A DNA stretch of 64,000 nucleotides from Mobula hypostoma. Its lineage: Eukaryota. A model generated the notes under the pieces. That model was not told where the DNA came from and did no database searches. It worked only from the letters and a program-made list of their open reading frames with translations. Positions 42,840-52,001 of this stretch are shown here, one piece after another. How positions within the stretch are numbered: the first letter of the stretch is position 1; each line of letters opens with the position of its first letter. Both the position numbers and the translations under genes were made by a program. The stretch is from NCBI RefSeq assembly GCF_963921235.1, contig NC_086108.1:43836001-43900000 (forward strand), given 5' to 3'.

Positions 42840-44480
42840 TATGACCTACGAACGTGTGGCTAAGCACAACTGCAATTCCATATTCAAGTTTGCTGATGAT
42901 ACCATTGTTGTGGGCTGAATCAAAGGTGACGATGAATCAGCATACAGGAGGGAGACTGAAATCAGGTTGAGTGGTGTGATAATGGTGGAGGATTACAAAT
43001 ACCTGGGGATACGAATTGACAATAAACTGGATTGGTCAAAGAACACTGAGGCTGTCTACAAGAAGGGTCAGAGCCGTCTCTATTTCCTGAGGAGACTGAG
43101 GTCCTTTAACATCTGTCGGACGACGCTGAGGATGTTCTACGAGTCTGTGGTGGCCAGTGCGATCATGTTTGCTGTTGTGTGCTGGGGCAGCAGGCTGAGG
43201 GTAGCAGACACCAACAGAATCAACAAACTCATTCGTAAGGCCAGTGATGTGGGGATGGAACTGGACTCTCTGACGGTGGTGTCTGAAAAGAGGATGCTGT
43301 CCAAGTTGCATGCCATCTTGGACAATGTCTCCCATCCACTACATAATGTACTGATTGGGCACAGAAGTACATTCAGCCAGAGACTCATTCCACCGAGATG
43401 CAACACTGAGCATCATAGGAAGTCATTCCTGCCTGTGGCCATCAAATTTTACAACTCCTCCCTTGGCGGGTCAGACACCCTGAGCCAATAGGCTGGTCCT
43501 GGGCTTATTTCCTGGCATAATTTACATATTACTATTTAATTATTTATGGTGCAACTGTAACGAAAAACAATTTCCTTCGGGATCAATAAAGTATGACTAT
43601 GACTATGACTATAAGAACAACCTCTCATTCAATGTTGGCAAGACCAAGGAACTAATTGTAGACTTCAGGAGAGGGAAACCAGAGGTCCATGAGTCAGAGG
43701 ATCAGAGGTGGAGAGGGTTAGCAACTTTAAATTCCTAGGTGTTACTACTCTAGAGGAACTGACCTGGGCCCAGCACTTAAGTGCAATTGCAAAGGGAGCA
43801 TGGCAGCATCCCTACTTCCCTTGGAGTTTACGGAGATTTGGCATGACATCTAAAACTTTGACAAACTTCTGTGCAGTGGAGATATATTGACTGGCTACAT
43901 CATTGCCCGGTATGGACACCAATGCCCTTGAAAGGAAAATCCTACAAAATCAGTGAATTTGGTCCAGCAGATCACGGCTAAAGTCCTCCCAACTACTCAG
44001 CACATCTACATGAAATGCTGTGGTAGGAAAGCAGCATCCATCATCAGGGATCCCCACCACCCAGGTCATGCCCTCTTCTTGCTGCTGCAGTCAGGTAGAA
44101 GGTACAAGACCCTCAGGACTCACACCATCAGGCCCAAGAACAGTTACTACCTCTCAACCATCAGGCTCTTGAACAAAATTGGATAACTTCACTCATTTTC
44201 ACTTGCCCCATCATTGAAATGTTCCCACAATCAATGGACTCATTTTCAAGGACTCTTCATCTCATGTTATTGTTATTTATTACTATTTATTGGTATTTTC
44301 ATTTGCACAGTTTGTTGTCTTTTGCACTCTGGTTGAACGCCCTAGTTGGGTGGTCTTTCATTGATCCTGCTCGAGTTACTATTCTATAGACTTGTTGAGT
44401 ATACCTACAAGAAAATGAATCCCAGGGTTGTACATGGCGACATACTGCATATGTACTTTGATAACGATATTTACCTTGAA
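42840..44480 (+). mobile_element. Decayed Rex1/Babar fragment containing a younger LINE 3' fragment (~42984-43611)
   Basis: Host carries KFADDTIVVG and resumes at aacaacctctcattcaatg. Nested ORF 42967-43491 reads YKYLG..IDNKLDWSKNT..KKGQSRLYFLRRLRSF with an (ACTATG)n tail. Confidence 0.88.
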
Positions 44481-44525
44481 CTCTGAAGAATTCTAGAGGG
44501 AAAAAGTTACCATAACATGATACAA

Positions 44526-44711
44526 GCAACACACACACAATGCTGGAGGAACTCAGCAGGCCAGGCAGCATCTATGGAAAAAAGTTCAGTCGCCGGCTCG
44601 GCCTGAAACATCGACTGTACTTTCTCCCATAGATGCTGCCTGGCCTGCTAAGTTCCTCCACCATTTTGTGTGTGTTGCTTGGATTTCTACATCTGCAGAT
44701 TTTCTCTTGTT
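44526..44711. mobile_element. Fold-back PLE-terminus insertion (second subfamily)
   Basis: Inverted arms gcaacacacac..tgctggaggaactcagcaggccaggcagcatctatgg and its complement. 15-bp TSD CATAACATGATACAA (44511-44525, 44712-44726). Confidence 0.9.
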
Positions 44712-47700
44712 CATAACATGATACAACTTAGTTTCAAAATGATGTGATTCAATCTGAAAACAGGGCTTTTAATCTAAATAAAGGAAACTATGAAGTTATA
44801 CAGGGCAGGCTGGCCATGGGAAACTTTGTTTAGGGGTATGGTACTTGAAAAGTAATGATTAGCGTTTAAAGAAAACATAATTGCAACAACTATACATTCC
44901 TTTCATGCATGTTACATGAAAAAACAGTCTGAGGAGAAATTAAATCTAAGGCAAAATCTTACTACGATACTAGAAAAAGCTGGAAGCAGAGGACTGGGAG
45001 ACTTTTAGAACTGAGAAGGATGAATAAGAAGTTGATAAAGAAAGAGAACAGATTATGAGTATAAAACTGGTGAGAAATCTGAAAATGAGTGCAAAAGCTT
45101 CTAAAGAAAAAAACGAGTATGGCAAAATGAGGGTTCTTTACAGCGAAACATGTTTTACATTTTTCAGACCAGAGTAGTTAAAAATCTTGCTAATGATAAA
45201 TTTTGGGCATTTAACTATTTTTCATGCCATTTTGGTAAGTATGATAATGGAAAAACAGAACAAACATAAAGATCTCAGTCGGAGATGGGAAGCAATATTA
45301 CCAACAGATCATAGGATACCATGAATCATGTGTAAATACAATGAATTTCTGTGCAGATACTATGAATTCCTGCTCATGCAATTGTTAACTTGCATTCATA
45401 TCTTTTATTTTGTATTTTATGAACAAACTTCCAGACCTATTTTTCTAGTTTGGGTTGAGGATGATTTTTCTTAAGATTGATTCTCTAATCACATTTATGT
45501 AATAGTCCTGGATCCAATAACTACCCAATTGATTTTGTTCCCAAGTTTGCTTAATTATATTCCAGTAAATGACAAAAACTGTTTTGATCCCCAACACTGG
45601 TAGAAGTATATTCACGTTTCATATTGAAAATTGCAAGAATCAACAAATAATGTTACAAGCAACATACAGCAAGTAAGCTTACATATTACATATACTGTAT
45701 TGACAAGAACAAACTGTCTAAAATAAAAGACTGGCACGGGCTCACAACGCTAGCAACCTTGTGGGCAGCACTCACAAGAGGGCACCACTCAAGCTACAAC
45801 TGAACATGAACAGCAATACCCCCAGATTCTCCCAAGAGGTGGGGAGGATGAGAGACTCAACAGGACGGTCATACCGGCAACGGCCAGGACAGGAAACACG
45901 ACTACGAGGAAGCTAAAGCAAACAACACTGATCGGAGAGGAATTCTTGGTAAGGTGTCATTGCGGGAAAGTCTGCAAAAACATCAGAGGGCTCAAGATAC
46001 ACCAGAGCAGGTCTAGATGTGGATCAATGGTGACCCAAGTGCAGCGCACGGACTTAGTATCCAGTGAGACGAAGGAGAATTCCAGCCAGGAAGCTCCCCA
46101 CAGAGCTGAAGATCTCTCCACACTTGAGTCACCTCAGCACTGAACAACAGACCTAGTGAGTTCCTCTTCCACTACCCCAATCCATTCATCAAGGAAAGAC
46201 AGGATCAAATAGCATAGATCGTCAGACAACGTCACCTGGATGCAGTTCGATGATGATCTAGACGGATTAGCAGGTCCAGTACACAGAAAGATCAACTCAC
46301 TCACAGCCACAGCGTACAATCTAGCAAAGGAACGATTTGGCCCAATGGAGCGGAGAAGCCAGCCGGAGTTACTGTGGCAACCAAATAGGAGGGAAACGAA
46401 GATTCGTCGCTTGAGAGGCGAATTAAAGACGCTCAACAAGGAGTTTAAAACCAGCTCACCGGCTGAAAAAGAAGGTATCAAGGACTTAACAAGTATGCTG
46501 CGGGAAAAGCTGTGCAAACTCCGGAGGGTGAAACATCTGCGACAGCAAAGAAGGAAGAAAGAGAAAAGGCGAGCGCAGTTTGTGAGAGATCCATTCAGCT
46601 TCACCAGGACTCTTCTCGGCCAACAAAAATCTGGTATACTATCCAGCTCAAAGCCAGAGGTAGAGGAGTTCCTGTGGGAGGCACACAGCGACCCACGGAG
46701 GGGTCAGGGACTAGGAACCAATCGGGCTGTGTGTAGACCAGAAAAACTATCGATTGAGCTGAATGTGAAGGAACCTACATGGCTGGAAATCCAGGACACC
46801 TTCCGGAAAGCTAAAGCATCAGCTGCCCCAGGCCCAAGCGGCATACCTTATAAGGTGTATAAGAAATGTCCAAAACTTCTTTGGAGGCTGTGGAAGGTCA
46901 TGAGAAAGATCTGGGTCAAAGGTACCGTTCCATCAAGTTGGAAATTGGCAGAGGGATGCTTTATTCCAAAGGAAGAGGTTTCTTCCATAATTGCCCAGTT
47001 TAGGACAATTTCTCTCCTGGATGTGGAATGTAAGATTTTCTTTTCTGTGCTCGCAAGAAGGCTGACTTCTTACATGACACAATACCGCTATATCAACACA
47101 TCCATCCAGAAAGGCAGTATTCCAGACTTCTCGGGGTGTCTGGAACACACCTCAATGATTAGCCATTTGATCCATGAGGCCAAGCAGAAAAAAGGTAACC
47201 TAACAGTTGTCTGGTTAGACCTCGCGAACGCCTACGGGTCTATTCCACATGACCTCATTCTAGAAGGACTCGACCACTACTACATCCCAGTGGCTATTCG
47301 AGACATGATCACCAGCTACCTAGGATTCAAACTTAGATTTACATCAGCTCATTTCACAACTAGTTGGCAGGACCTCTAGAAAGGGATTCCAACAGGGAAT
47401 CCCTTTATTATGGGAATGAACCTCCTATTATCAGCAGCAGAAGATGTAAGCCGCAGCCCAACGCTGGAGTCAGGCATTGTTCAGCTGGCTCTATGAGCGT
47501 TCATGTACAACATCAGTATAACAACTGTGTCACATGTCCAAGCAAGATGGGTATTGGCAACCCTGGGTAATGTAGCCACTTGGGTGAGGATGTCCTTCAA
47601 GGCCACGAAGTCCAAGTGCACGGTGATCAGAAAGGAGAAAGTTACAAGCAAGTTTAGTCTCCAAGTTCAGAGTGAGGCCATCCTTTTCATCGAAGATAAC

Positions 47701-47943
47701 CTGATAAAATGCTTGGGGAAGTGGTTTACTGTGTCACTGACAGATGAGACTAATGTCACCAATGCTGTGAAGCAGACAGACGAATCGCTGAAGAAGATCG
47801 ACAAATCCAGACTTCCGGGTAAATTCAAGACCTGGCTGTACCAATACAGCATTCTCCCAGGCTTCTCTGGCTCTTCACATTTTATGAGCTCCCCATGACT
47901 GCCTTAGAGGGCATCGAGAGGAAAACCAACAAGCACCTGTGGA

Positions 47944-48234
47944 CACGAGGAAATCTGCAGATGCTGGAATTTCAAGCAACACATATAAAAGTCGCTGGTG
48001 AACGAGCAGGCCAGGCAGCATCTCCAGGAAGAGGTACAGTCGACGTTTCGGGCTGAGACCCTTCGTCAGGACTAACTGAAAGAAGAGATAGTAAGAGATT
48101 TGAAAATGGGAGGGGGAGGGGGAGATCCAAAATGATAGAAGAAGACAGAACTGACGAAGGGTCTTGGCCCAAAACGTCGACTGTACCTCTTCCTAGAGAT
48201 GCTGCCTGGCCTGCTGCGTTCACCAGCAACTTTT
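47944..48234. mobile_element. Fold-back PLE-terminus insertion inside the HERO ORF
   Basis: Inverted PLE ends with 13-bp TSD AAGCACCTGTGGA (47931-47943, 48235-48247). Confidence 0.93.
48038..48073 (-). ncRNA. Minimal type I hammerhead ribozyme motif (PLE)
   Basis: Minus strand reads AGTC-CTGACGA-AGGGtctcagCCC-GAAA-CGTC-GACT. Confidence 0.82.
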
Positions 48235-49501
48235 AAGCACCTGTGGAGATGGTTGGGAATTCCCCCAAGCTTCTTTTCAGTGGGCCTCTACATTTGTTCT
48301 GGGCAACCACAGCTTCCCCTGTCATCTGTTGTGGAGGAATTCAAGGTGGCAAAATGCAGAGCCTTATTAAGCTTGAGAGATTCCAACGACGTCTTGGTAA
48401 AGCAAGTAGGCGTTACAACCAGATCTGGGCGCAAGTGGGCAGCCATCGCAGCTGTGGAGCAGGCAGTGTGTTCTCCGAAGCTGCGAGATATCACCAGCAA
48501 CCCCTGCAGTGGGCGGCAAGGCCTCGGCTCAGTTCACTTCCAGCAGTGGGGAAACGCAAGCACAAGGAACAGGTGAGACATGGTAGAGGCAGAAGTACGG
48601 ATCCGTGAGGAAGTGAAGTGGATGTCAAAGGCAGTGGAAGAAGGGTCCCAGGGTGCCTGGACAAAATGGGATCTGCCTCAGCGCAAGATCTCATGGGCAG
48701 AGCTATGGAGACTGCAGCCCTTCCGTATTTCCTTCCTCTTGCGATCCGTGTATGACACCCTTCCTTCACCATTACATCTGTACACATGGGGGATGAGAGA
48801 GGACCCGAACTGTAAGCTCTGTGGTCAAAAGGGGACACTGGCTCATATACTGTCCGGGTGTAGAACAGCTCTAATTCAAGGGCAGTATAGGTGGCGCCAT
48901 GATAAGGTGCTTCTGGCTCATGCTGACACACTAGAGCGGGAGAGATGTAAGAAGAGGACGGCTGGCACAGATTTGAGGAAGGCCATCACCTTCATCAAAG
49001 AGGGAGTCAGCCCTTTCGTAACCAAACAACCAAAGCCCAATCTGCTGCTAATGGCCAGATCCTGGGAGATGACGGTTGATGTGGGAAGGAGGTTGCAGTT
49101 CCCGGATGTGGTGCACACAACCCTACGCCCGGACATTGTACTGTGGTCAACCAAAGACAAGAAAATAATTCTGGTTGAGCTGACTGTGCCGTGGGAGGAG
49201 GGATGGGAAGAGGCCCACGAGAGAAAGGCCTTAAAGTACCAGCCCTTATTGCAGGAATGCAAAGACAAGGGATAGCAGGCATGGTTTTTCCCTGTGGAGA
49301 TCAGCTGCAGAGGTTTCCCAGCCAAATCAGCATGGCAGTCATTGTCAGATCTGGGCCTGGACGAAAGCAGCAAAAAACAAGCAGCTTGTAGGATGGGGGA
49401 AGAGGCAGAACGAGCCTCTTGTTGGATTTGGAGTAGGCGAGAGGAGGGAAGCTGGAAGCCAGGAGCAGATGGGCAATGATTTGGCCACCACTGCCAGCCC
49501 A

Positions 49502-49570
49502 CCAACTGGAGAGTGTCGTGGTTAAGGGTCAAAACACTCTGTGAAGGTTGGGAACCACTTGATGACATCT
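49502..49570 (+). ncRNA. Candidate rearranged (non-circularly permuted) hammerhead ribozyme, decayed, in the HERO 3' UTR
   Basis: Stem III is AGAGTGT/ACACTCT and stem I is GTGGTT/AACCAC, with a GUC site at 49515-49517. The core is present as (A)AAA and (T)TGATGA. Confidence 0.55.
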
Positions 49571-49885
49571 GCTCCTGGTTGAAGGCTATGGTTACCTTAT
49601 AAGGTAAATGGAGATTGCACCCTAACAAGTTTTGTATTCTTTGTGTTGAAATGGAGAAGGGTGGAGGGGAAAAAATATAAAGGTTGTGTGCATCCAACCA
49701 AATTTTCACAAGCATTTTGTTTCTGCAGGTAAATATTGTAACAAGTTTGATCTGTGCAATAAATAATTCAGAACATCAAACAGATGGAAACAACAGGAAT
49801 TCTGCAGATGCTGGAAATTCAAGCAACACACGTAAAAGTTGCTGGTGAACGCAGCAGGCCAGGCAGCATCTGTAGGAAGAGGTAC

Positions 49886-49921
49886 AGTCGATGTTTCAGG
49901 CCGAGACCCTTCGTCAGGACT
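49886..49921 (-). ncRNA. Minimal hammerhead motif, palindrome mutated (ACAT)
   Basis: Minus strand reads AGTC-CTGACGA-AGGgtctcggCCT-GAAA-CATC-GACT. Confidence 0.7.
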
Positions 49922-50192
49922 AACTGAAGGAAGAGTGAGTAAGGGATTTAAAAGTTGGAGGGGGAGGGGGACATCCAAAATGATAGGAGAAGACAGGAGG
50001 GGGAGGGATAGAGCCAAGAGCTGGACAGGTGATAGGCAAAAGGGGATACGAGAGGATCATGGGACAGGAGGTCTGGGAAGAAAGACAAGGAGGCGGGGCG
50101 AACCCAGAGGATGGGCAAGAGGTATATTCAGAGGGACAGAGGGAGAAAAAGGAGAGTGAGAGAAAGAACGTGTGCATAAAAAAGAGTAACAG

Positions 50193-52001
50193 ATGGGGTA
50201 CGAGGGGGAGGTGGGGCCTTACTGGAAGTTAGAGAAGTCGAAGTCTGACCTCTACCTTGCCGAGGCACAGCGACAACTCGCGGATACCTCCTCTTATTTA
50301 CCCCTCGATCGTGACCCCACTAAGGAGCACCAGGCCATTGTCTCCCACACCATCACCGACTTTATCCGCTCAGGGGATCTCCCATCCACTGCTACCAACA
50401 TTATAGTTCCCACACTCCGCACTTCCCGTTTCTACCTCCTACCCAAGATCCACAAACTTGCCTGTCCTGGCCGACCTATTGTCTCTGTTTGCTCCTGCCC
50501 CACCGAACTCATTTCTGCATACCTCAACACTGTTTTATCACCCCTTGTTCAACCCCTTCCGACCTATGTTCGTGACACTTCTCACGCTCTTAAACTTTTC
50601 GATGATTTTAAGTTCCCTGGCCCCCACCGCTTTATTTTCACCATGGATGTACAGTCCTTATATACTTCCGTCCCCCATCAGGAAGGTCTCAAAGCTCTAT
50701 GCTTCTTTTTGGATTCCAGACCTAATCAGTTCCCCTCTACCACCACTCTGCTCCATCTAGAGGAATTAGTCCTTACTCTTAATAATTTCTCCTTTGGCTC
50801 CTCCCACTTCCTCCAAACTAAAGGTGTAGCTATGGGCACCCGTATGGGTCCTAGCTATGCCTGCCTTTTTGTTGGGTTTGTGGAACAATCCATGTTCCGT
50901 GCCTATTCTGGTATCTGTCCCCCACTTTTCCTTCGCTACATCGACGACTGCATTGGCGCTGCTTCCTGCACGCATGCAGAACTCGTTGACTTTATTAACT
51001 TTGCCTCCAACTTTCACCCTGCCCTCAAGTTTACCTGGTCCATTTCTGACACCTCCCTCCCCTTTCTAGATCTTTCTGTCTCTGTCTCTGGAGACAGCTT
51101 ATCCACTGATGTCTACTATAAGCCTGCTGACTCTCACAGCTATCTGGACTATTCCTCTTCTCACCCTGTCTCTTGCAAAAACGCCATCCCCTTCTCGCAA
51201 TTCCTCCGTCTCCGCCGCATCTGCTCTCAGGATGAGGCTTTTCATTCTAGGACGAGGGAGATGTCTTCCTTTTTTAAAGAAAGGGGCTTCCCTTCCTCCA
51301 CTATCAACTCTGCTCTTAAACGCATCTCCCCCATTTCACGTACATCTGCTCTCACTCCATCCTCCCGCCACCCCACTAGGAATAGGGTTCCCCTGGTCCT
51401 CACCTACTACCCCACCAGCCTCCGGGTCCAACATATTATTCTCCGTAACTTCCGCCACCTCCAACGGGATCCCACCACTAAGCACATCTTTCCCTCCCCC
51501 CCCTCTGCATTCCGCAGAGATCGCTCCCTACACGACTCCCTTGTCCATTCGTCCCCCCCATCCCTCCCCACAGATCTCCCTCCTGGCACTTATCAGTGTA
51601 AGCGGAACAAGTGCTACACATGCCCTTACACTTCCTCCCTTACCACCATTCAGGGCCCCAAACAGTCCTTCCAGGTGAGGCAACACTTCACCTGTGAGTC
51701 GACTGGGGTGATATACTGCGTCCGGTGCTCCCGATGTGGCCTTTTATATATTGGCGAGACCCGACGCAGACTGGGAGACCGCTTTGCTGAACATCTACGC
51801 TCTGTCCGCCAGAGAAAGCAGGATCTCCCAGTGGCCACACATTTTAATTCCACATCCCATTCCCATTCTGACATGTCTATCCACGGCCTCCTCTACTGTA
51901 AAGATGAAGCCACACTCAGGTTGGAGGAACAACACCTTATATTCCGTCTGGGTAGCCTCCGACCTGATGGCATGAACATCAACTTCTCTAACTTCCGCTA
52001 A
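50193..52001 (+). CDS. PLE reverse transcriptase and GIY-YIG endonuclease ORF (602 aa, N-terminus chimeric)
   Basis: RFYLLPKIHK, GRPIVS, MDVQSLYTSVP, GVAMGTRMGPSYA, RYIDD and LPFLD. Cys linker CKRNKCYTC. Endonuclease VIYCVRCSRCGLLYIGETRRRL. No internal stops. Confidence 0.9.
   Translation: MGYEGEVGPYWKLEKSKSDLYLAEAQRQLADTSSYLPLDRDPTKEHQAIVSHTITDFIRSGDLPSTATNIIVPTLRTSRFYLLPKIHKLACPGRPIVSVCSCPTELISAYLNTVLSPLVQPLPTYVRDTSHALKLFDDFKFPGPHRFIFTMDVQSLYTSVPHQEGLKALCFFLDSRPNQFPSTTTLLHLEELVLTLNNFSFGSSHFLQTKGVAMGTRMGPSYACLFVGFVEQSMFRAYSGICPPLFLRYIDDCIGAASCTHAELVDFINFASNFHPALKFTWSISDTSLPFLDLSVSVSGDSLSTDVYYKPADSHSYLDYSSSHPVSCKNAIPFSQFLRLRRICSQDEAFHSRTREMSSFFKERGFPSSTINSALKRISPISRTSALTPSSRHPTRNRVPLVLTYYPTSLRVQHIILRNFRHLQRDPTTKHIFPSPPSAFRRDRSLHDSLVHSSPPSLPTDLPPGTYQCKRNKCYTCPYTSSLTTIQGPKQSFQVRQHFTCESTGVIYCVRCSRCGLLYIGETRRRLGDRFAEHLRSVRQRKQDLPVATHFNSTSHSHSDMSIHGLLYCKDEATLRLEEQHLIFRLGSLRPDGMNINFSNFR

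Follow-up and report, generated by a model that had tools for sequence, protein, structure and literature searches.

A Putative Hammerhead Ribozyme of Interrupted Wiring in HERO-like Retrotransposons of Animals and Its Possible Part in Making a Circular RNA Template

HERO-like non-LTR retrotransposons carry, just past their single open reading frame (ORF), a conserved RNA motif in which the parts of a hammerhead ribozyme follow one another in a rearranged order and further helices enter the core between A9 and G10.1. One decayed copy lies in the window, a stretch of 64,000 nucleotides (nt) from Mobula hypostoma; judged from the proteins and contigs compared here, the motif is clade-wide in HERO-like elements, in fish and mussels. 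Whether HERO-group LINEs across animal phyla are autonomous retrotransposons replicating via a protein-coding circular RNA is, in our estimate, an evenly balanced question. Such a circle would arise from a hammerhead of new architecture whose helices clasp the ends of a 3.7-kb RNA, and the annotated 5′ and 3′ ends of the elements would mark only the point at which reverse transcriptase (RT) starts on it.

The element that carries the motif in the window has the following parts.

45726 to 49629, plus strand: decayed copy of a HERO-like non-LTR retrotransposon, family 1; likeness to other copies begins at 45726.
46213 to 47379, plus strand: RT fragment of the broken single ORF (Pfam RVT_1, E 3.5e-8).
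47944 to 48234, no strand assigned: later short-repeat insertion, foreign to the element, seen as a gap between aligned blocks of sister copies.
48577 to 49275, plus strand: C-terminal ORF fragment with CCHC knuckle and PD-(D/E)xK-like endonuclease motifs, by eye.
49581 to 49629, plus strand: tail with a hairpin (49590-49608), before the insertion end point.

This copy starts ~88 nt inside the element head and, judged by the 3′ ends of 29 sister copies, finishes ~14 nt before the usual family end; the unit length of family 1 is ~3.73 kb. The layout is that of a HERO-type single ORF, with RT and zf-RVT recognized by Pfam (zf-RVT in the 48577 to 49275 fragment at E 3e-5, under its cut-off) and an N-terminal zinc finger and nuclease motifs seen by eye. 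The C-terminal fragment has 297 relatives, the named ones being from fish, lancelets, and bivalves. Over the RT stretch, 84 of 141 residues (~60%, counted by eye against a row from the supplement of PMC5678591) are identical to HERO-2_DR. By its RT and C-terminal domain, the element appears to be an R2-group LINE of HERO-like type. HERO is a non-site-specific clade of the R2 group (PMC3636483; clade names also after PMC7650587 and PMC13580325), and insertion is likewise dispersed here, with no fixed target sequence, as flanks differ among the 29 copies and among 46 junction copies described below. The tail of family 1 has 1421 candidate copies in the genome, of which 40 were scored and 30 fetched. 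A second family in the same genome, with a 1166-aa open frame, also bears the motif. UGUAU stands ~10 nt ahead of the insertion end point in both of these families and in many metagenome tails, and is a candidate RT initiation signal. GIY-YIG endonuclease was absent from the six ORF pieces scanned. A separate Penelope-like neighbor, with RT and GIY-YIG in a 603-aa frame, occupies 50190-52001, and short pieces of its repeat recur at ~42300, 44540-44665, 47944-48234, 49790, and 51990.

An earlier note on this DNA had described a rearranged hammerhead at 49502-49570, and when the sequence was re-read, all letters and coordinates of that motif were correct: AGAGTGT (49510-16), C49517, GTGGTT (49518-23), GGGTC (49526-30), AAAA (49531-34), AACCAC (49553-58), and TTGATGA (49559-65), with the ORF stop TGA (49477-79) 38 nt ahead of the predicted cut. 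Its reading of two core changes as decay also holds, G12 being G in 22 of 29 and C3 being C in 26 of 29 other copies, ranked by likeness to the window copy. Of 35 downstream ends chosen on a different basis, 27 of 34 have G at G12 and 33 of 35 have C at C3; the core is complete in 23 of the 35. A third lesion, G10.1 to A at 49496, had been overlooked. With three core lesions, the motif of the window copy is presumably dead, while the core is intact at family level. A chance origin was ruled out by the recurrence of the same block order, on the sense strand and after the ORF, in related loci. An Rfam scan of 44000-52000 with E values up to 5 gave seven weak matches, none of them to a ribozyme or hammerhead family. 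The 69-nt stretch does hold a hammerhead core, but taken by itself, 49502-49570 has a predicted folding at shuffle level (z −0.43). That of 49455-49582 exceeds shuffles (z −3.5), and the full structural unit spans ~49457-49580.

The strands of this unit are listed below in the terms of Eckert et al. 2023 (PMC10085705), who defined the hammerhead blocks S, G, and C and assumed them to be uninterruptible.

49457 to 49471, plus strand: 5′ strand of helix A, formed by the last ORF codons; pairs with 49566-49580.
49472 to 49495, plus strand: hairpin B (49472-78 with 49489-95), containing the stop codon TGA 49477-79.
49496 to 49500, plus strand: true stem II, strand 10.1-10.5; pairs with 49526-49530; G10.1 is A here.
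49502 to 49507, plus strand: 5′ strand of helix D; pairs with 49546-49551.
49510 to 49523, plus strand: block S, with the 5′ strand of stem III, the GUC triplet, and the 5′ strand of stem I; predicted cut 49517/49518.
49526 to 49540, plus strand: block G, with the stem II strand to C11.1 (49530), GAAA (49531-34; G12 decayed to A here), and the 3′ strand of stem III.
49546 to 49551, plus strand: 3′ strand of helix D, from the covariation alignment.
49553 to 49565, plus strand: 3′ strand of stem I and CUGAUGA (49559-65; C3 is U here).
49566 to 49580, plus strand: 3′ strand of helix A, directly after A9, the normal place of G10.1.

The rearranged strand order that the earlier note had reported is thereby confirmed, as block order S-G-C in a HERO-like element. 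Covariation was assessed in 26 rows aligned from sequence only, with structure ignored. The seven helices, all mutually compatible, are paired in 92.0% of 951 cells and show 272 double-sided changes, against 65.1% and 82 in shuffle controls, none of 500 of which reached either observed value, although relatedness by itself can outscore shuffles. Slid-partner controls gave only 36 to 43% paired, and in the per-pair tables the same pair is seen as G-C, A-U, U-A, and C-G; together, these slid controls and tables leave little doubt of the predicted fold. Helix A is 87% paired, with double-sided change in 10 of 10 counted pairs, and is present in all six predicted folds; hairpin B is 96% paired, with double-sided change in 6 of 7 pairs. 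For helix A, a length threshold of at least 7 with one mismatch proved unselective, as 60% passed it with foreign strands, and the case for the helix is this covariation. Stems I and III stand as originally claimed, at 100% (double-sided change in 3 of 3 counted pairs) and 98.1% (3 of 6 pairs), and the proposed outer CCAAC/GTTGG helix covaries as well. Stem II as first drawn, GGGT with ATCT over a C-C pair, does not: it is 47.7% paired, against 46.4% in shuffles, with its closing pair in 1 of 26 rows. Among 39 loci mutually <85% alike, a contiguous 10.1-11.1 pair directly after A9 is formed in three, and in the alignment in 1 of 26 rows.

The true stem II, 93% paired in the structure-blind alignment, uses a partner strand (49496-49500) beyond the coordinates first given, so that a construct of the 69 nt would be without half of stem II. 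Its 10.1-11.1 closing pair is G-C in 32, G-U in four, and another standard pair in three of the 39 loci, the partner in each having been picked by best pairing. Helix D (83 to 85% paired, with double-sided changes, and at least 4 bp in 33 of 39 loci) links the far ends of stems I and II. Hairpin B was parsed automatically as flush with helix A and stem II, with zero unpaired bases, in 26 of 39 loci. In the predicted arrangement, a flush four-way junction placed between A9 and G10.1 unites helices A, B, and II with the core; from helix continuity we infer that stem II stays stacked under G12-A9 across it.

Hammerhead catalysis tolerates any nucleotide but G at position 17, leaves N7 free, and fixes U16.1-A15.1. 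Of the 39 loci, 38 have U, C, or A at position 17, the single G copy having GUC sisters, and N7 varies (U in 23, C in eight, A in seven, G in one); U16.1-A15.1 and G16.2-C15.2 are unchanged across the 26 rows. The motif parser required CUGANGA, RAAA, and U16.1 and left positions 17, 7, 11.1, 15.2, and 16.2 free beyond pairing, so that the invariance of the core letters is partly selected. With the core letters taken as in the Figure 1 legend of PMC10085705, the pattern of fixed and free positions across these sequences is that of hammerhead catalysis. Self-cleavage after position 49517 is predicted with good confidence.

Beyond the window, metagenome contigs were scanned with protein alignment, and the best 80 of 382 confirmed loci were kept. 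Among these 80, a descriptor found the S-G-C core, intact or G12-decayed, in 47 loci, and a covariance model of 26 rows matched 61, all on the sense strand after the ORF, including 37 of the 56 non-training loci. Adding two descriptor-only loci, the motif is present in 63 of the best 80, which had been retrieved by protein likeness alone. The 17 loci without a match comprise 10 that end within 330 nt of the protein match, three without an ORF end, two sisters of L082 (its motif is 830 nt out, past their ends), and two, L096 and L112, without explanation. Motif-bearing loci sit on all main branches of a quick tree drawn without named references, and no relative was found among viral contigs. 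For named species the support consists of annotated proteins only, which read through the motif in a shifted frame in zebra mussel (P0091) and two bony fish (P0109 and P0115).

Insertions longer than one unit bear on how the element is copied. Likeness to the head was used to fetch 30 copies: seven are truncated before the head-tail point, three stop within ~3 nt of it, and 20 run through; 20 of the 23 that reach the point thus continue into the element's own tail. In 19 of these 20 the spacing is constant to within 2 nt, and two of the 20 have flanks in common. The exact junction pattern occurs at 46 places genome-wide, all of which were fetched; 28 cross the site again, 24 with a whole second motif, and two stop within 3 nt of the site. 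For nine of the 46, no far 3′ end could be located in the fetched stretch, so some of these second passes are unconfirmed. The extra piece measures ~15 nt to 1.9 kb where its far end was verified, and in L224, L240, and L242, with the far 3′ end present, it reaches 1.1 to 1.9 kb, which calls for a way to regrow. In L209, the junction follows >3 kb of element and is succeeded by only 100 nt of head; priming may have occurred inside the head there. Among 12 stretches of family 2, selected for long ORFs, three show two motifs and terminal repeats of 216 to 602 bp. In metagenomes, the head stands right after the tail in 10 of 41 loci with at least 250 nt downstream, short-read contigs in which this is adjacency only. 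Among assembled contigs from sequencing runs, whose RNA status is mostly presumed, X1 spans the tail-head junction at depth 5; in it, RNA and DNA, and circle and tandem, are indistinguishable.

The paired repeats of 33 insertions share 32 non-majority, non-CpG variants, against 6.7 and at most 17 in 2000 shuffled pairings; the 32 include one added by a mis-paired insertion (L221), which was left out of the side-bias and second-pass comparisons. These shared private variants point to one template per insertion. With 4.7% of sites differing between the paired repeats of an insertion, the family must be old. Two variants at window positions 49540 (23 nt past the cut) and 49607 (90 nt), non-CpG-type changes (G>T and A>T) common in the family, differ between the repeats of one insertion in 6 of 7 and 4 of 5 carriers. 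Hot spots, a modified base misread by RT, or mixed templates may account for this discordance. By a strict rule, target duplications enclose the complete insertion in 3 of 36 cases and in 0 of 180 controls, and two more long ones are slightly offset; 31 of 36 insertions are without a long duplication, so that a single-event origin is direct for few. Where present, in L229, L230, L236, L241, and L251, the flanking duplications are 34 to 236 bp long.

The repeats showed no side-specific lineage (59 same-side versus 46 opposite-side pairs, p 0.24). Second passes end in the 300 nt upstream of the site more often (19 of 28) than first passes do (5 of 28; p 0.0003), as expected if RT meets its own cDNA; the same excess also fits linear RNAs with scattered 5′ ends. 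Second-pass stops (L209 to L254) cluster at +75 to +88, on the 3′ side of the tail hairpin, and at +37 to +48, at the core entry, while six lie at −136 to −150, in an A-rich run. A promoter-set 5′ end near −145 was considered for the last cluster and rejected: 4 of 59 first-pass copies also stop at −134 to −150, and with the adjoining A-rich run, the cluster is read as a sequence-dependent stop.

The element head is a second conserved structured RNA, in which GUGAC...GGAAAGAC units recur and two covarying hairpins directly precede the ORF, with double-sided change in 21 of 34 predicted pairs over 10 rows. Examples are the following.

L224, 6715 to 6910, minus strand: element head.
L256, 4505 to 4700: element head.
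Window, 45726 to 45790: end of the element head.

Other loci with the head are L038, L041, L042, L044, L045, L046, L057, and L072. The long frame of several families starts behind a stop codon and has no AUG there, and the head could be a cap-independent entry site, something a circle would need. In L255 and L256, both of family 2, the AUG of the 1166-aa frame sits in the tail of the upstream repeat, so that only the joining of tail to head places this start ahead of the ORF.

We lean toward a model in which two ribozymes would excise a unit RNA, which would be ligated to a circle and reverse-transcribed more than once round; that such a circle is the usual template seems, to about the same degree, somewhat better than an even call. 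Stem II would stack under G12-A9 as in ordinary hammerheads, with helices A and B forming a second stack. A longer-than-unit copy, read through from upstream, would be cut at both motifs, leaving 5′-OH and 2′,3′-cyclic-phosphate ends. Of helices A, II, D, and III (~30 bp), one end of the 3.7-kb RNA would carry one strand and the other end its complement, so that the two could clasp; ligated by the ribozyme or a host ligase, the clasped ends would restore the site. RT would start internally, ~126 nt past the site, go one round and often into a second, and soon stop; about half of the longer-than-unit insertions would again hold two motifs, and the cycle would be renewed. A circle would explain the conserved core with its intact site, the exact junctions, the matched repeats, the regrowth of the repeat, and the early second-pass stops. 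Ribozyme cleavage, ligation, and RT on circles are known for the Varkud plasmid and proposed for Penelope elements (PMC6765202).

Some observations count against the circle. An interruption of the backbone between A9 and 10.1 contradicts what Eckert et al. assumed, namely that the blocks are uninterruptible (PMC10085705). For the Penelope element PAc in vitro, ribozyme mutants still insert, uncut RNA is the main substrate, and no reads ended at the ribozyme site, as reported in PMC11167929; by analogy, these results would speak against a circular template in HERO-like elements too. The PAc hammerhead also depended on the protein of its element. The discordance at 49540 and 49607 is not predicted by one circular template unless the two positions are mutation hot spots.

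A less probable account, though one with a real share of our expectation, is that the uncut linear read-through RNA of a partial tandem is copied and RT jumps from the 5′ end of the RNA to its own 3′ end, regrowing the repeat; cleavage would then serve host-transcript release, translation, or self-limitation. The RT of R2 has reportedly been found to continue synthesis across separate templates. Shared private variants fit an intramolecular jump as well, and 3 of the 23 copies noted above do stop within ~3 nt of the head-tail point. Many families have their stop codon inside hairpin B or close to it, so that ribosomes could hold the downstream motif open, and PAc uses uncut RNA with an internal RT start in vitro (PMC11167929). 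However, the passage of 20 of 23 copies through the junction with uniform spacing stands against genomic 3′ ends that are ragged, with slipped repeats, and a jump would need to match that efficiency and precision. Side-specific inherited differences are absent from the repeats, and cutting at the upstream motif only would pile copies at the site, where just 2 of 46 stop.

That the motif is a non-cutting docking or RT-positioning fold for the element protein, a hammerhead lookalike that never cut or no longer does, we regard as improbable. It would accommodate the blocked classical stem II, in which helix A takes the strand after A9, the finding that every genomic copy keeps the site whole, and the lack of a match to the Rfam hammerhead models. 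Yet helix A re-routes stem II rather than abolishing it, as C11.1 is present in 32 of 39 loci and paired with an upstream G. The seven helices are compatible and covary, the fixed and free positions match catalysis, and the longer-than-unit copies would need a separate cause.

The earlier note had further suggested that self-cleavage may define the 3′ end of the element's RNA. For the end used in insertion this is not supported, as copies extend ~126 nt past the predicted cut site. There are 385 exact copies of the 3′ half of the motif in the genome. A pattern for copies ending at the site had three matches, none of which ends there and all of which continue as element; a pattern for copies starting at the site had five, none of which starts there. 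These five belong to an older subfamily with the upstream element intact, and a 5′ truncation hot spot at the cut was accordingly rejected. One of 30 unbiased copies stops 5 to 6 nt upstream of the cut site. A linear template whose 3′ end is set at the cut is very improbable, for although the site lies 29 to 81 nt after the stop codon in most families with a placeable stop, copies finish well downstream of it, all three site-end matches run on, and each new copy would lose the 3′ half of the ribozyme. In the circle model, which we judge best, the cut would make both ends of the unit RNA before ligation, and the end-defining idea survives in this changed form.

If the circle model is true, a non-circularly permuted hammerhead so far seen in environmental RNA only would be present in animal genomes, in hundreds of copies, with a wiring that the published block scheme excludes and that searches built on that scheme would overlook. 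An R2-group LINE would then use a circular, internally primed template instead of the usual linear RNA primed at its 3′ end, and the circle model long proposed for Penelope elements and retrozymes could be put to the test in an autonomous element. Tools for RNA circularization and gene insertion could profit both from a ribozyme able to clasp and join distant RNA ends and from an RT-endonuclease priming on circles.

Among known hammerheads, the motif resembles type SGC (HRIMA-1 and variants, PMC10085705) in the order site-GAAA-CUGANGA with all core letters, in the short linker between stems I and II, and in a helix tying the far ends (the “I” helix there, helix D here). In type SGC, block C is whole and the RNA ends beside stem III, whereas in the predicted HERO motif the SGC ring is closed beside stem III and its opening lies instead between A9 and G10.1, by way of helix A and hairpin B. 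Because block C is interrupted, the motif would work like type SGC and yet is not filed there, and we infer that a pattern requiring a contiguous stem II would miss it. Type SGC has been validated in vitro and, according to the main text of PMC10085705, was found only in metatranscriptomes and in no genome of a known organism, RefSeq having been searched; the HERO motif, in contrast, has hundreds of copies in animal retrotransposons. Measured against the main-text description of type-SGC variants, the wiring is apparently new, and the variant alignments of Eckert et al. may bear on its novelty. A literature search, with subscription journals and Repbase Reports mostly outside its scope, returned no hammerhead with such a junction and, for HERO, no description of a ribozyme, terminal repeat, or circle.

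Penelope-like elements (PMC11167929, PMC6765202) share tandem or partial-tandem copies, a hammerhead in the terminal repeat, an internal RT start, and proposed circles with the HERO-like element. They have a GIY-YIG endonuclease and minimal type I motifs in pseudo-LTRs, while the HERO-like element is an R2-group LINE with a larger motif and other wiring. In retrozymes and in the RNA of the Varkud (VS) plasmid, two ribozymes excise a monomer that is circularized and reverse-transcribed (bioRxiv 10.64898/2026.07.22.740005; PMC6765202), a likeness that for HERO comes from the proposed model and from genomic copies. Retrozymes encode no protein and have type I or III motifs (bioRxiv 10.64898/2026.07.22.740005), and VS is another ribozyme class, on a mitochondrial plasmid (PMC6765202).

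Members of the HERO clade (HERO-2_DR, HERO-1_BF; PMC5678591) share with the present element the single ORF, the RT with a C-terminal endonuclease, and dispersed insertions. The 5′ HDV-like ribozymes of R2 and L1Tc (PMC6765202, PMC3636483) offer the precedent of an R2-group element freed from a longer transcript by self-cleavage, and in HERO-like elements with an upstream repeat, the motif also stands 5′ of the ORF, as the R2 ribozyme does. The R2 and L1Tc ribozymes, however, have the HDV fold and make a single cut at the true 5′ end of a linear template that has a true 3′ end.
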